Shown: piece by piece, positions 34,601-43,600 of the stretch
How the letters are laid out: every line of letters starts with the position of its first letter
Numbering within the stretch: the stretch's first letter is position 1
Assembly: GCA_965223665.1 (NCBI GenBank)
Contig: OZ245011.1
Location: 64,001 to 128,000 of the forward strand
Source: Nitrospinaceae bacterium
Lineage (GTDB): Bacteria > Nitrospinota > Nitrospinia > Nitrospinales > Nitrospinaceae
Direction of reading: 5' to 3'
Length of the DNA stretch: 64,000 nucleotides
Program-made: the position numbers

Positions 34601-37600
34601 AAAATATTTCACCCCTTTCGAACTCTGCATAACTATCAACCAGGTTTGCTCTTCCATCACGACAAGATTTAACTTCTGTTCCTAATAGAGCCATACCCGC
34701 TTCTAAAGTGTCCTCTATGGAATAATTATGTCTTGCCTTTTTATTCTGACAAATTATTTTAATTCCGCTCATATTGTTTGATTTAGTGATTTGGAAAAAT
34801 AAGTTATTTAGTTAATAAACCTTTACTGTTTTTCCGAGTGGTTTTTTGAAATATTTTGATGCATTTCTCTTGTAGCAAAAAATTTCAATGCATCCCCAAC
34901 TATTTATCAAAGCCCCTAATTCTCCGATTTTTTTATCACTGTATGTTTTTGACAGGTTCTTTATTTTATGGCGACCACACTCTAAAAACCAATCACCTTT
35001 TTTTCTTAAATGGGGTTCTATGTTTGCAAGTTTTAGGTTAGTCATCATATTACCAAATCGATCAATGTAGGTTACTTCCCCAAAAAGATTTTTTCCCTTA
35101 TAAAACGGTTGAGGCAATTTAATCATTATTGGGTTTGACAGCTTATCTCCAATAGTACTTATTGGGGTTCCTTTTGCTAAATGGGCGGCGATGGGAGCAA
35201 AAATATCTCTGCCATGGAAAGTTGATGATACAGGGTTTAAAAAATATTTAGCCTTTGAAATTTCGAATACTTTTGACTTGGAACACAAAATTGGGGATAA
35301 AACTCCATTATCTGGCCCAATAAAAATATGTTGTTTATGTTTGACTGCAATAGGTTTTCGTTTACCTCCCACCTCGGGGTCGACTACGACTAAATGAATA
35401 GATTTTGTGGGAAAGTAATTCCAGAAACTATCCAAAACTCTAGCAGCTTGTTCAATATCTTGTGATTCGATTTGATGGGTTATATCAATTAATTGAGCTA
35501 CGGGAGCAATTTTTAATATTACTCCTTTCATGATTCCAACAAAAGGATCATTTAAACCAAAATCAGTGGTAAGCGTGATTAGGGAAGGCATCCGGTAACT
35601 TGACGATTTGTTACATGCTGAACGTTGACTGAAATAATATTATTCATTAAATCATTTTCTCCACTCAGAAAAATTGGGATATAGTTTTCACTATGCCCTT
35701 TCAATAGGTTAGTTTCAGGATCTCTGCTACTTTCTACGAGAAGAGAAACTGTTTTATTTAAAAAGCTTTTTCTAAAGTCTAAAGATTTTTTTTGACCTAA
35801 TTGGGATAAAATTTTATTTCGTTCTTTTTTAGTCTTATTTTGGACATCATTTTTTAGTGAATAGGCAGTTGTTCCTCGCCTAGGCGAATAACTAAAAACA
35901 TGTAAATAAGAAAAAGGAATATCTTCAATTAACTGATAAGTATTTTTAAACATATTTTCTGATTCACCCGGAAATCCGACAATTATGTCTGCTCCTAATC
36001 CTGGATTGGGTATCTTATTTAATATCCGGTCAATCGTTTTTCTGTATTCCTTGGAATTGTAATTTCTTTTCATCTGTTTCAATATATAGTCATCTCCACT
36101 TTGAAGTGGGATATGAAAATAAGGACATAATTTTTCAGACTTTGCCATAAGTTCAATTAAATCTTCATCAATCTCCATGGGATTAATTGAACTAAGCCTT
36201 ACTCTAAAGTTTCCATCCAATTCAACGATTTCTCTAACCAAAGAAGAAAAATTCTCGGGTGGACTCAAATCTCTCCCGTAGGTTCCCAAGTTTATGCCAG
36301 TAAGAGTGATTTCTTTATAACCAGAAGAAATTGCATGTTTCACATTATTAATTATATTTTTTCTGGAATCACTAATGGATCTTCCTCTGGCATGGACCAC
36401 GGTACAAAACGAGCATGCTTCGTCGCAGCCAGTTTGAACTTTTATAAAGGCTTTAGTTTTTCCATGGAAATCAGAAACAGGAATGGGTTGAAAATCCCAT
36501 TTTTCCTTTATATCCTCCATATAAACTAAGGGACTTTGTAAAGAGTTTTTCTTTGAATCTTCTTTAGATAATCGTCTTTGAATTATTTTGGCAATATCTA
36601 GTTTATTCGCATTTCCAAGCAGTATGTCTAAGCCATCTAACTTTGAAACTTCTTCTGGATGGGTTTGCCCGTAGCATCCAGTAAAAACCACCAAAGCGTC
36701 TTCATTAATAGCCAAAGATTTTTTAACCGCGGCTCTTGAACTTTGATCACTTTTAGAGGTAACCGTGCAAGAGTTCACCACATAAATATCTGCTGTCTCC
36801 TGGGAATTGACAATAGTAAAACCTTCCTGTTTTAACAACGTTTGCATTTCGGCTGTATCGTTTTGATTGGTGCGACATCCCAGAGTTGTAAAGGCAACTT
36901 TCATGGTAAATTCAATTAAAAAAAATTAATAATTTCTCATAGTATGATAATGCCCTAATGGTATCAATGATTTCTTAGAATAAAATAAAAAAATTAGGAG
37001 GAACTTGACCCGGTAGGGAGAGTTTGTTACATTAATGGCCTCATTCCGATAGACCGTTTGCCCCACCAAAGAAGGCTTATGAATAAAGTCCAAAAAGATG
37101 TGCGTACGTTTCTTGAAAAATGGTTGGACAAAACTGTTCGCCAATATATTTCCAAAATGGATGGTAAAGAAAATGGCCATTTGCACGATTTAATTATTGG
37201 TGGGGTAGAGAGGCCCTTATTAGAAATTGTACTTCAGGAAACCCAGTATAATCAGACCAAAGCTTCCAATATTTTAGGTATTAACCGAAATACCCTAAGA
37301 AAAAAAATTCAAGAACATAAAATCAAATGCAAAAAGACCACTTAGCGGTCGTTATTTTAGCCGCGGGAAAAGGGAAACGGATGAAGTCAGACCTTCCTAA
37401 GGTATTGCACGAATTAGGATCAAAGACTTTATTGTCTCATGTTTTAGAAACTGTGAAATCGTTAGCTCCTGAAAGGACGGTCATAGTTGTTGGGCACCAA
37501 GCTAAAAAAGTGGAGTCTCAATTTTCGGATCATAATAATGAGTTTGTAGTGCAAAAAGAACAATTGGGAACCGGTCATGCCGTGCAGCAAGCTCAGGAGG

Positions 37601-40600: not shown

Positions 40601-43600
40601 TCGAAAAAACAATATAATGAAAACCTAAATGCATTGAAGGAAATGCCCGAAATCATCCACGGGATTTTAAATGAACGTTCTGGGTTTATCCATCGAATTG
40701 CTCATCAGCATGCTCAAGTAAAGCATTGGTTATATTTAGGAAGAGGAATCTATTATCCCGTTGCCTTAGAGTCAGCTTTAAAAATGAAAGAAGTTGCTTA
40801 TGTGCACGCAGAAGGTATGCCATGTGGTTTTTTGAAGCATGGAACTTTGGCGATGATAGATTCAAATATAAATTCAATTGTTTTTATTCCACCAAAGAAT
40901 GATAAAGAATTGTATGAAGCTACATTGGCCAGTGTTGCCGAAATTCGTGCTCGATCCGGTTATGTTTTAGGAATCCATTTTGATGAGCGTGGAAAAAATA
41001 AAGACCTTTTTAGTGAAGAGCTAATTCTACCGCCGGTGCCTCAAATCACGGCACCTCTTATTCAATTAATAATTGCTCAAATGTTGGCTTATTTTACTGC
41101 AACCTCCCTCAAAAGAAACGTGGATAAGCCGCGTTCTCTTGCCAAATCTGTAACAGTAGGTTAGTCTATCCAATAATTTTTTACCTTACGCCATAAGTGT
41201 GCAGGTTATCTGTGCCTATTTTTTAATTTAAAAGTTAATTTATATGAGAAGAGTTAATACGGTCTTGACTGTCGCTGGGTCTGATTCTAGTGGAGGTGCT
41301 GGCATTCAAGCTGATATAAAAACCATTGGAGCCCATGGTTTGCTTGGGACTTCTGTGATTACTTCTATAACTTCACAAAATTCTTATGGAGTTCAAGCGA
41401 CCCATCACTTGGATCCAAAGCACATTGAATCCCAATTAAAGTCTATTTTTGAAGATTCAAAGCCTTCAGCTGTAAAAACAGGAATGTTGGGAGAAGGAGA
41501 AATCGTAAAAGTAGTTTCCAAATATTTGAAAAAATATAAAGTGAAAAACTTGGTGGTAGATCCCATCCTATTGTCAACCAATGGATATCCTTTGCTTTCG
41601 AAGGAAGGGATCCGGGTAATGGAAAACTTATTATTTCCACTTGCTAAATTGGTAACACCGAACTTGTCAGAAGCAGAAAAATTATCCGGAGTCCGCATTA
41701 AAAAAGCATCGGATCGAATAAAGGCAGCACGTTCAATATTAAAAAAAGGGGTTCAGGGAGTTTTGATTAAAGGGGGGCATGCAATTGATAATGCTGACGA
41801 TTTTTACTTTGATGGGAAAAATAAGGTTATTTTTCCCGGAAAGCGTTTTCCCATGGAAAATCTGCATGGAACTGGATGTGTACTTTCTTCGGCGATTGCT
41901 TCATGTTTGGCTAAAGGTGAATCCATTATTGAGGCCATTCAAAATGCAAAAAATTTCATAAATGTAGCAATTAGCCAGGGAATATTCCCAGGTAATGGAG
42001 CGGGTTGCGTTGATCCTCTAGGCAAATTTTATGAGAAGCAATTAAGAGAGGATCTTATCCAGCAAGTGACCCAAATGGTAGAAAACTTAAAATCTTATCC
42101 ATTAGGATACTTAATTCCAGAGGTTCAATCTAATATCGGAGTGGGTCTGTCTGGAGCCTTTTCGCCTGATGATGTGGTAGCTATTCCAGGAAGAATAGTT
42201 AAAAAAGGTAAAGGAATTTATACTATTGCATCCCCTGAATTTGGAGCCTCACGGCATGTTGCAAAAATTGTTTTGACCGTAATGCGTGCCGATGAGTCAA
42301 GGCGTGCAGTGATGAATATTAAGTTTACGGACTCCTTGCTAAAAATATGCAATAAATTGGGATTTAAAATTAGTTCTTTTAGTCGTTATAAGGAGCCCAA
42401 AAATATTAAGCAATTGGAAGGGTCCTCATTAGAATGGGGAACTTACCAGGCTATTTCAGACCTTGGAGAAGTACCTGATATAATTTTTGATGTAGGTGGG
42501 CAGGGTAAGGAAGAAATGATCCGAGTTATTGCAAAAGACTCTGCAGATTTGCAGAAGAAAATATTAAAAATTCACCGTCTTGCTTTAAAAGAACTCCCAG
42601 ATAAAGAGATAGATCGATGGAGAAAGAAATAGTCAATTATGATCACCTAAAAAACAGGAATTTTCCTCAAAAGCAACATGAATTTAATCAACCATTACCA
42701 AAACGAAAATAAAATATATTTATCAACTTGAATTAAGACAACCCTTTTGGGATATCAAACCATTCCATTTCATCCACTTTTTTCCCAAAATACTTTGCGC
42801 CCTCTAAAGTGTAATGGTGATGATCAGAATATATTTTTTCGAAATTTTCTGTGACAATACTGCATTTACTTTTTCTGACGGAACATTGATAATCAATCTT
42901 TTTCAGAAATAATATTCCATATTTTGACGCAATTGATTTTAGTTTTTTATTTATAGCGCTCGTTTTCTTTTTCCTTTTATTGAATAAATCTTGCTCAGCT
43001 TGGTCTTTTTTAAATAAAGCGAAGTCGCCATTTATATTGCTAACTATATCATCTAAGAGCGTATTATTTTGAGGTTTAATTGGCCACTCTTCTGATTTAG
43101 ATAAAAGAATCACTTTCTTTTCATTTGCTAAGAGAAATTTAATAAAATTTTCAATATAGCTCAATTCATTTCCATTAAATGAATCACTAATTACAACAAT
43201 TCTAGCTTTTTGGAATTCTTGGCTTTCAATACACTCCTTAGTTCTTTCTATACCTCCTTTTTCTATTTCATCAATATATTCTTGATCATTCTTATCATTT
43301 GAAAAAAAGACCAATCGGAGATCACATAGTTCAAAATTATAAAACTTCACGTATTTGGTGCTGTGTATCAATTGAAAAAAATCGAAACCATGACTATCTC
43401 CCCAAACTAGTACATCTATTAAACCTGGTTTTTTGAATTTATCAAAATAATTCCAACCCCTATCAAAATTACTTTTTCGCAAGCTTAAAAGATAATTGTT
43501 ATCATAAACATATCCTTGGAACCTGTTTTTTGAATGTTTTGAATTCCATCCTATGGATATTAAGGCAACCGATAAAATAAATATCATCTGAAAAAAAACT

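Follow-up and report, generated by a model that had tools for sequence, protein, structure and literature searches.

We propose, with moderate confidence, that an archaeal-type GlmU homologue of 401 aa, encoded in a 64,000-nucleotide stretch of a Nitrospinaceae genome (the window), is a non-catalytic, dedicated subunit of the glucosamine-6-phosphate synthase GlmS2, probably a ligand-sensing one, within a UDP-GlcNAc pathway split among four enzymes. The genome-wide survey's note on this DNA had described a gene order of half glmU, 401-aa GlmU and glmS, and had placed a 693-aa mutase beside a hexapeptide acetyltransferase-like gene; we find the same genes at the same coordinates and lengths, the first three all on the + strand (Table 1). 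The fis-like regulator is probably in the same operon as the half glmU and is not part of the UDP-GlcNAc pathway, and the ThiD-ThiN fusion is not thought to belong to that pathway. No glmS ribozyme or other Rfam RNA was found in the window, and a scan for promoters and terminators gave matches at chance level only.

Table 1. Features of the locus (window positions) and related genes elsewhere (C1 positions)
Feature	Position	Strand	Remarks
fis-like regulator	37058..37345	+	overlaps start of half glmU; position conserved in relatives
half glmU, stand-alone bacterial-type GlcNAc-1-P uridylyltransferase (predicted), 249 aa	37327-38076	+	TIGR01173 positions 2-240
archaeal-type GlmU homologue, 401 aa	38119-39324	+	TIGR03992; both catalytic signatures changed; predicted partner of GlmS
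glmS, 606 aa, distinct clade GlmS2	39344-41164	+	catalytic residues intact; TIGR01135
ThiD-ThiN fusion	41244..42632	+	downstream of glmS; neighbour in Nitrospinales only
693-aa mutase, candidate GlmM	C1:3129128-3131209	-	outside window
259-aa hexapeptide protein, predicted acetyltransferase	C1:3128324-3129103	-	outside window; comes after 693-aa mutase gene
AlgC-type mutase	C1:3535230-3536603	-	alternative GlmM candidate

A probable split UDP-GlcNAc pathway in Nitrospinota

Canonical GlmU and GlmM, neither of which the note had found in any of 25 genomes, were not detected in the wider phylum either: none of 120 phylum genomes passes the cut-off of TIGR01173 (full GlmU) or of TIGR01455 (GlmM), versus 9 of 14 controls for each model. 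The idea of a non-canonical pathway is supported across Nitrospinota. We consider it very likely that the pathway is split and uses the 259-aa acetyltransferase. GlmS2 would convert Fru-6-P to GlcN-6-P, the long mutase would turn this into GlcN-1-P (with the AlgC-type mutase as a possible back-up), the 259-aa protein would acetylate it to GlcNAc-1-P, and the half GlmU would complete the route to UDP-GlcNAc. What we observe are the genes, their residue changes, conservation and linkage; the activities are all inferred.

The half GlmU scores 289.7 bits on TIGR01173 (cut-off 366.85), spans only the first part of the 452 model positions, ends at a genuine stop codon and has no acetyltransferase domain, hence is not a full-length bacterial GlmU. 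Every uridylyltransferase motif checked is kept, in line with its earlier description as a stand-alone uridylyltransferase half: Arg18, Lys25, Asp106, Glu158 and Asn231 in 79 of 79 rows and Asn173 in 78 of 79, some genomes being counted twice. It is predicted to be active. Its gene has a dN/dS of 0.109 (one genome pair, dS ~0.8) and a median identity of 54%, and one genome that is 97% complete and has MurA (G053) lacks it. Neither tblastn nor TIGR03991 turned up a stand-alone C-terminal half of a bacterial GlmU in this genome. A frameshifted or split full GlmU was considered and rejected, the frames being short and closed in the relatives examined. NagU was likewise rejected as the uridylyltransferase: this genome's sole PF01704 gene, which faces glycogen phosphorylase, is much closer to UDP-glucose pyrophosphorylases (E 1e-118) than to their UDP-GlcNAc counterparts (1e-7), and among the 84 of 120 phylum genomes with a PF01704 match, the full-length matches score like this UDP-glucose pyrophosphorylase-like protein.

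The 259-aa protein has hexapeptide repeats with the acetyltransferase His, Tyr and Asn kept (36/36 rows), and such a candidate occurs in 56 of 57 good genomes; going by its residues, it is a better acetyltransferase candidate than the 401-aa protein. The long mutase lies beside it in 29 of 30 loci, the remaining one being cut by a contig end, and follows glmS in 22 of 66; in 12 of 66 loci a single operon holds the 401-aa gene, glmS2, the long mutase and the acetyltransferase.

For the GlmM step, the long mutase is a good candidate. It has a phosphohexomutase fold (pLDDT 92), its top fold matches are GlmM, and so are its best PDB sequence matches, as the note had said; the catalytic motifs, including the Ser motif noted earlier, are kept in 38 of 38 rows. 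On the family models it reaches 116.3 bits for TIGR01455 (cut-off 447.55) and 92 for TIGR03990 (cut-off 439). The survey had counted it as GlmM in 22 of 22 genomes of the order, and its candidacy stands on motifs and context, but it is not universal: it is present in 54 of 57 good genomes and in 0 of 4 of Nitrospinota family f5 (94, 96, 95 and 81% complete), where MurA was found in 3 of 3 tested. It is a separate question whether the GlmM step falls to the AlgC-type enzyme, leaving the 693-aa protein with another role. The AlgC-type mutase outscores the long one on TIGR01455 (200.2 bits), as the note had cautioned, and also on TIGR03990; family f5 has MurA without the long mutase; and one PMM/PGM fold scores almost as well as GlmM folds for the 693-aa protein. 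As to specificity for glucosamine phosphate, gene context speaks for it, whereas family f5 does not. Nor does the Thr that stands in place of Ser two positions ahead of the catalytic one (38 of 38 rows), a site said to influence specificity (PMC10087520). Set against the placement after glmS2, the near-constant adjacency to the acetyltransferase, the wide distribution and the GlmM matches, a handover of this step to AlgC seems to us unlikely.

Both catalytic signatures of the 401-aa protein are changed

Proteins of the 401-aa family pass the TIGR03992 cut-off, as the note had reported for the present one (305.4 versus 292.1 bits), and are named bifunctional GlmU in databases. In the nucleotidyltransferase motif, Arg13 is replaced by Lys and Lys23 by Asn; in the acetyltransferase site, His, Tyr and Asn read Arg317, Phe320 and Asp331. 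Of the 66 readable loci (L003-L069), 65 have lost Arg13 and all 66 have lost Lys23, so that the earlier claim of a degenerate motif holds, except that the loss of Lys23 belongs to Nitrospinales and most of the wider family keeps this residue. The changes in the acetyltransferase site had been missed by the survey. There, His has become Arg (65/65 readable loci), Tyr has become Phe (64/64) and Asn has become Asp (65/65), and outgroup rows keep all three (11/11). By alignment offsets, Arg317 of the 401-aa protein and His155 of the 259-aa one both correspond to residue 374 of Mycobacterium tuberculosis GlmU, in which His374Ala abolishes acetyltransfer and in which His374Ala and Lys26Ala each kill one activity (PMC4619583). 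Because its acetyltransferase His also reads Arg, the 401-aa protein probably does not supply the missing acetyltransferase activity, and the note's implied claim that it is a working pathway enzyme is not supported. On these residues, we judge it likely that the protein catalyses neither GlmU step in Nitrospinales.

Decay to a pseudogene was rejected, given a dN/dS of 0.015 versus 0.013 for glmS (dS ~0.8; one genome pair). Median identity is 70% for the 401-aa protein and 71% for GlmS, and the family is found in 108 of 120 phylum genomes and 55 of 57 good ones. The protein retains Asp108, Glu158-Lys159-Pro160, Asp215 and the beta-helix, and in 58 of 58 rows the residues at the sugar and metal sites of its nucleotidyltransferase domain are invariant, as is an Arg in the beta-helix groove.

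It is possible to imagine the 401-aa protein as a working GlcN-1-P acetyltransferase that uses Arg for His and complements the half GlmU, which it adjoins in most Nitrospinales loci; Arg287, Glu303, Lys305 and Asn340, which we take from E. coli numbering to be substrate ligands, are invariant, and 8 of 10 SAR324-group MAGs show no other GlmU-type acetyltransferase. We think this very unlikely, since the His is required in the M. tuberculosis enzyme, most His-type rows have Asn at position 331, where Arg-type rows show more than 10 different residues, and the intact candidate is nearly ubiquitous in good genomes and lies in the same operon in early branches. More improbable still is a new catalytic role in a GlmS complex, for example acetylating the GlcN-6-P released by GlmS, in the eukaryote-like order, with the long mutase then acting on GlcNAc-6-P. 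The substitutions are indeed fixed rather than random, and the Thr of the long mutase and the SAR324 gap described below would fit, but the modelled contact with GlmS runs through the N-terminal domain and not the beta-helix, and in Nitrospinota a His-type acetyltransferase adjoins the mutase.

Linkage to GlmS2 and a modelled complex

Among 71 bacterial loci, drawn from several phyla, 68 have the 401-aa gene directly upstream of a GlmS2-clade gene, 2 are at contig ends and in 1 the genes are not adjacent. Starting in reverse from GlmS2, 60 of 62 genes adjoin a member of the 401-aa family, although the two sets share many contigs and kin; for one GlmS2 (L305) no partner was found in its MAG. 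The two genes lie apart in family f7, and 0 of 9 archaeal loci have the 401-aa family followed by GlmS2. In family f9 the 401-aa gene moves with glmS2 and not with half glmU, and gene order argues against the 401-aa protein as a partner of the half GlmU, a candidate role that we rejected. Genome G126 carries the family alongside a full GlmU (519.9 bits), and in 3 of 3 Asgard genomes examined it occurs together with His-type copies. Bacterial copies of the family group as a single clade (67 rows, support 100; FastTree, motif columns removed) in a tree that is midpoint-rooted and therefore gives no donor or order of events.

GlmS2, the only full glmS in this genome, scores 620.5 bits on TIGR01135 (cut-off 418.05), with its active-site residues intact and the N-terminal Cys present in 58 of 58 rows. 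A second GlmS, with a Cys-to-Ser change, was also seen in this analysis. Modelled as a complex, the 401-aa protein and GlmS reached 0.67 versus 0.00 for the best control, a mark attained by 116 of 157 solved pairs and 2 of 215 mismatched pairs, with 7 of 44 blind neighbour pairs passing; contact in the model is at the GlmS interdomain linker, and the modelled contact includes residues 443-447 of GlmS and 142-151 and 205-210 of the 401-aa protein. Runs share at least 77% of contacts with partner pLDDT of at least 84, the complex being folded 1:1 from alignments that we built ourselves, although both proteins are probably oligomers. On the 401-aa side, the 45 of 401 residues at the interface include 10 of 29 clade-specific residues, and on the GlmS side 48 of 606 residues include 6 of 14 (weaker with a 3-sequence outgroup, 5 of 30, p 0.08), enrichments that reuse the same alignments without a surface control; mean conservation at the interface (0.62) is barely above that of the rest of the domain (0.60). 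The model and the linkage suggest that the 401-aa protein quite probably binds GlmS2. In that complex its former nucleotidyltransferase domain would lie against three parts of GlmS2: the glutaminase domain, the linker between domains and, in the isomerase domain, a helix specific to the clade.

Because its sugar- and metal-site residues and its beta-helix are kept, the 401-aa protein most likely binds a pathway metabolite. This could be UDP-GlcNAc or a sugar 1-phosphate, whose binding would be relayed to GlmS as feedback. That the protein senses a ligand and regulates GlmS2 is a suggestion we make tentatively, and both the ligand and the direction of control are what we infer. This genome, which is 98.6% complete, yielded no member of the GlmR/YvcK or RapZ families. 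The same linkage, selection and complex model would suit an obligate structural subunit or scaffold of GlmS2 that senses nothing and serves folding, domain coupling or a metabolon with small enzymes, as would the clade-specific GlmS2 residues at the modelled interface and the near-absence of GlmS2 without the 401-aa family. A pure scaffold, however, need not keep the sugar- and metal-site residues and the groove Arg in every row, though the groove lies outside the modelled interface; we regard a scaffold alone as fairly unlikely, and favour the dedicated subunit that probably senses a ligand.

The SAR324 group

Searches of 10 SAR324-group MAGs found no full or half GlmU (the half by protein search in 5 of these), no TIGR03991 member and no NagU-like score, yet MurA occurs in 5 of 5 tested. 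The 401-aa family, which bears the same Arg motif, is the sole candidate of GlmU type in 8 of the 10 MAGs, and for that reason it may still be catalytic in this group; here Lys23 is kept in 10 of 10 copies and Arg13 in 7 of 10. We speculate, while thinking it somewhat doubtful, that several bacterial phyla have a two-subunit GlcN-6-P synthase, one subunit of which derives from GlmU, clamps the interdomain linker of GlmS and reports on the end product. Such an assembly would have begun as a complex of the first and last enzymes, with the uridylyltransferase still working in SAR324 and decayed to a pure sensor in Nitrospinales, once an ancestral glmU-glmS operon there had been cut back to the half GlmU and a Cys-less GlmS. 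SAR324 would then need another way of acetylating glucosamine.

Relation to known systems

The 401-aa protein shares its two-domain fold with archaeal bifunctional GlmU of the ST0452 type (TIGR03992; PDB 2ggo, 5z0a; TM 0.88 to 5z0a, ~31% identity), but differs in lacking Arg13, Lys23 and the His-Tyr-Asn set, in forming a separate clade and in its fixed place upstream of one GlmS clade. According to passages of PMC11228364, human GMPPA is an inactive paralogue with nucleotidyltransferase and beta-helix parts, which binds the product and exerts feedback inhibition. The 401-aa protein has a GMPPA-like fold match (7d72); GMPPA controls its own active paralogue, whereas the predicted target here is an unrelated enzyme three steps upstream. 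Plant KONJAC proteins offer a further GMPPA-like comparison. Bacillus subtilis GlmR (YvcK) binds UDP-GlcNAc and binds and stimulates GlmS (PMC7525490), but its fold (PF01933) is unrelated. In human GFAT-1, UDP-GlcNAc feedback acts via the interdomain linker (passages of PMC7000685), the region contacted in our model, but as described there the metabolite binds directly, without a partner subunit.

N- and C-terminal GlmU halves are encoded separately in other bacteria, with truncated or split forms beside NagU, according to passages of bioRxiv 10.64898/2026.06.23.733835, whose sections 11 and 15 do not mention a dead full-length GlmU copy. Compared with the systems in those passages, the halves here seem to be of different ancestry (bacterial type and ST0452 type), and the PF01704 protein is not NagU. 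The long mutase has the alpha-D-phosphohexomutase fold, catalytic Ser and metal and phosphate loops of bacterial GlmM (TIGR01455; PDB 3pdk, 7ojr), but at 693 versus ~445 aa it is longer, falls far below cut-off, reads Thr-Ala-Ser-His-Asn-Pro and carries a ~65-aa C-terminal extension. A literature search, with most subscription papers outside its reach, found nothing on a dead GlmU partnering GlmS.

Cell-wall sugar synthesis is entered through GlmS, whose known controls (small RNAs, a ribozyme, GlmR) come, to our knowledge, from a few model bacteria. Under the database name bifunctional GlmU, neither the real acetyltransferase nor the SAR324 gap can be seen. If our reading is true, a GlmU-derived GlmS subunit would be another solution to this control, in abundant marine nitrite oxidisers and in SAR324, and would give bacteria a counterpart of GMPPA whose action crosses from one enzyme family to another.

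Results

The three open reading frames that the genome-wide survey's note had assigned to this locus (a 249-aa protein, a 401-aa protein and GlmS) lie where it placed them; the 249-aa protein matches bacterial GlmU over its first 240 positions, and the 401-aa protein, as the note had it, scores above the TIGR03992 cut-off. We enlarged the survey to 120 phylum genomes, of which 57 (good genomes below) have a completeness of 90% or more and a contamination of 5% or less. The claimed absence of canonical enzymes holds at this scale, with full GlmU above cut-off in 0 of 120 genomes versus 9 of 14 controls and identical counts for full GlmM, and so does the wide distribution of the half GlmU, since a match of that strength (E < 1e-39) occurs in 109 genomes and 55 of the good ones. 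Arg18, Lys25, Gln76, Asp106, Gly143, Glu158, Asp204 and Asn231 of the half GlmU are conserved in 79/79 rows and Asn173 in 78/79 (some genomes counted twice), and, for M. tuberculosis GlmU, an excerpt of PMC4619583 describes the uridylyltransferase half as sufficient alone in vitro. From its residues, the half GlmU looks active. Half glmU was not found in one 1.7 Mb genome (G053, locus L067; 97% complete, MurA present), where the 401-aa gene directly follows fis. Further along the window, we take the ThiD-ThiN fusion to be archaeal-type.

Features at the glmS2 locus and related genes elsewhere in the genome
Feature	Position	Strand	Remark
Half GlmU, 249 aa	window 37327-38076	+	
401-aa protein	window 38119-39324	+	archaeal-type GlmU homologue
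GlmS (glmS2), 606 aa	window 39344-41164	+	
ThiD-ThiN fusion	window 41244-42632		after glmS throughout Nitrospinales; best model PRK08573, below cut-off
OafA-like membrane O-acyltransferase candidate, 639 aa	window 42733-44652		recognised from sequence
Long mutase, 693 aa	C1:3129128-3131209		outside window
259-aa protein	C1:3128324-3129103		outside window; after long mutase
UDP-glucose pyrophosphorylase, eukaryote-type	C1:874160-875548 (L398:4164-5522)	minus	facing glycogen phosphorylase

Residues of the 401-aa family were read from an alignment with the archaeal bifunctional GlmU ST0452 and 67 loci (L003-L069; 69 rows, two genes being in pieces). The reported loss of the nucleotidyltransferase motif extends across this set: 65/66 readable rows lack Arg13 and 66/66 lack Lys23. 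The acetyltransferase site is altered as well: His is replaced by Arg in 65/65 readable loci, Tyr by Phe in 64/64 and Asn by Asp in 65/65, and all three are retained in 11/11 outgroup rows. Arg317 corresponds to residue 374 of M. tuberculosis GlmU by aligned ranges (272-391 on 329-447) that include one net gap of unseen place, and the excerpt of PMC4619583 describes His374Ala as lacking acetyltransferase and Lys26Ala as lacking uridylyltransferase activity. As far as the alignment can be read, both catalytic signatures are gone from the 401-aa protein. The gene is nevertheless under constraint and shows no decay: in one pair, with a same-genus genome, dN/dS at dS of about 0.8 is 0.015 for the 401-aa gene, 0.013 for glmS and 0.109 for half glmU, and median identities to relatives are 70%, 71% and 54%. 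It was found in 108/120 phylum genomes (55/57 good ones), and its predicted structure resembles ST0452 (pLDDT 92, TM 0.88).

The companion of the 401-aa family is one GlmS clade. Linkage was read in both directions, in sets that overlap and include kin. Among the matches listed, 80 loci of the family had flanks, 71 of them not labelled archaeal; glmS (at least 44% identity) lies directly downstream in 68 of these, with a contig edge in 2 and no such gene in 1, and in 0/9 archaeal loci, one of which has a different glmS upstream. The reverse search from GlmS gave 118 stretches, 80 with flanks: 60 are adjacent (one as a short fragment only), 7 run into a contig edge, 11 fall outside the clade (34-41%) and 2 belong to the clade but are non-adjacent, the partner being elsewhere in one genome and without a match in the other. 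In family f9, a different glmS comes after half glmU, the 401-aa gene and glmS2 stand together elsewhere, and one genome (G126) carries a full GlmU alongside the pair. glmS2 is the only full glmS of this genome and is single in nearly all genomes of the order.

In that other glmS, of canonical type, Ser replaces the N-terminal catalytic Cys at 8/8 loci where the start can be read (L127-L131, L278, L162, L182), and a ninth, fragmentary copy shows the same change; five further copies are cut. This second gene stands downstream of half glmU or ahead of the 401-aa gene and is kept at full length, and most of its host genomes also carry the working GlmS clade; its product may be another pseudoenzyme or may use ammonia directly. 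A sister GlmS group with a similar Phe motif (L302, L310, L322, L338, L353, L355; Nocardia, a cyanobacterium and a Bdellovibrionota MAG) has no partner gene nearby at these six loci.

We modelled GlmS 2-606 with partner residues 1-394, using a 58-row alignment for each. The complex scored 0.67 (runs 0.69, 0.62 and 0.67) versus 0.00 for the best of three controls; the score mark is met by 116/157 solved and 2/215 mismatched pairs, counts that are only rough for the alignments used here. Contacts agreed between runs to at least 77%, with partner pLDDT at least 84, and would join the partner's N-terminal domain to GlmS 23-27, 237-264 (the interdomain linker) and 439-451. Clade-specific residues fall in the modelled interface above expectation on the partner side (10/29, p 0.0005) and on the GlmS side with a 24-row outgroup (6/14, p 0.0003; 5/30, p 0.08 with a 3-row outgroup), enrichments that use the same alignments as the model and no surface control. 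We know of no solved complex of GlmS with such a partner, and none was among the titles of the structure matches listed.

The remaining steps would be served by genes outside the window. All catalytic motifs of the long mutase are conserved in 38/38 rows, its model (pLDDT 92) matches GlmM best with PMM/PGM a close second, and it carries Thr at a position tied to specificity (excerpt of PMC10087520). Of 66 loci downstream of glmS2, 10 have the long mutase, 12 the long mutase and acetyltransferase, 2 the acetyltransferase, 3 another mutase, 19 thiDN, 14 none of these and 6 an edge. The long mutase, reported earlier throughout the order, is present in 108/120 phylum genomes (54/57 good ones) but in 0/4 of family f5. 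We think it likely that this protein is GlmM, with AlgC standing in where it is missing. Its residues from about 630 to 693 (L001:8132-10210) form a helix-helix-hairpin-helix extension, winged-helix-like by a weak Pfam match (E 0.036), which is absent in family f9, and at L189, L168, L201 and L230, where no mutase gene follows glmS2, a HAD-like hydrolase gene, recognised from N-terminal motifs, does. PF01704 matches occur in 84/120 phylum genomes versus 0/14 controls; in family f5, without the long mutase, weak matches to this model fall in frames of about 1080 aa on G001:C140 and G002:C8.

His155, Tyr158 and Asn169 of the 259-aa protein are conserved in 36/36 rows (30 plus 6 of 7 loci from two sets, own genome and one duplicate counted), and His155 aligns with residue 374 of M. 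tuberculosis GlmU in matched stretches of equal length. Orthologues (E < 1e-50) occur in 106/120 phylum genomes and 56/57 good ones, and early branches have a single operon of 401-aa gene, glmS, long mutase and acetyltransferase. The pathway acetyltransferase is probably encoded elsewhere than at the 401-aa gene, and is predicted to be the 259-aa protein.

Discussion

The 401-aa family extends outside Nitrospinota. Scanning DNA for the Arg motif gave at least 116 stretches, and all 116 listed are homologues; taxa among the matches listed include SAR324, Tectomicrobia, Schekmanbacteria, Binatia, Acidobacteriota, CSSED10-310 and Asgard archaea. The scan picks Arg by design, but a profile search without such selection also places Arg-type proteins top; no NCBIfam model sets them apart. 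In a FastTree of 208 rows with motif columns removed, 67 Arg-type rows group on one branch (support 100), which takes in every bacterial copy so labelled, 103 His-type rows fall on another (support 98), and archaeal Arg-type rows form a grade. The His change is general in the Arg-type family, and Arg13 and Lys23 are lost in a patchy pattern, completely in Nitrospinales only. Some Asgard/Culexmicrobium Arg-motif copies (L157, L191, L206, L209, L214, L233, L235) have no GlmS2 downstream, two Odinarchaeota copies have a full nucleotidyltransferase motif, and His-type copies coexist in 3/3 Asgard/Culexmicrobium carrier genomes checked.

The case against a non-catalytic 401-aa protein comes from 10 SAR324-like MAGs (G125, G128, G130-G137), grouped by labels and tree, completeness not being given. 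In these we recognised neither a full nor a half GlmU, with no TIGR01173 match better than E 2e-17, nothing above the TIGR03991 cut-off (a model that detects the 259-aa protein of this genome at 6.5e-28), and for PF01704 only UGP-like scores, in 2, with no recognisable NagU; MurA is present in 5/5 tested. A His-type beta-helix protein occurs in 2 of the 10; the remaining 8 have no GlmU-type candidate besides the Arg-type protein, so that the Arg site may be catalytic there. Since the SAR324-like copies keep Lys23 in 10/10 and Arg13 in 7/10, they may be uridylyltransferases. The UDP-GlcNAc route of these MAGs, including its acetylating enzyme, is not accounted for by the families found. G053, in which half glmU was not found, also speaks against the non-catalytic reading.

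For the Nitrospinales protein we favor a non-catalytic subunit of GlmS2, which may sense a ligand. UDP-GlcNAc inhibition of human GFAT-1 acts via the interdomain linker (excerpt of PMC7000685). GlmR is a known case of protein control of GlmS (excerpt of PMC7525490), GMPPA a known dead nucleotidyltransferase paralogue (excerpt of PMC11228364), and split GlmU halves are already published (excerpt of bioRxiv 10.64898/2026.06.23.733835). Neither the GlmR nor the RapZ family was found in this genome. Protein control of GlmS and dead nucleotidyltransferase paralogues are thus each known separately, and our literature search did not find them in combination.
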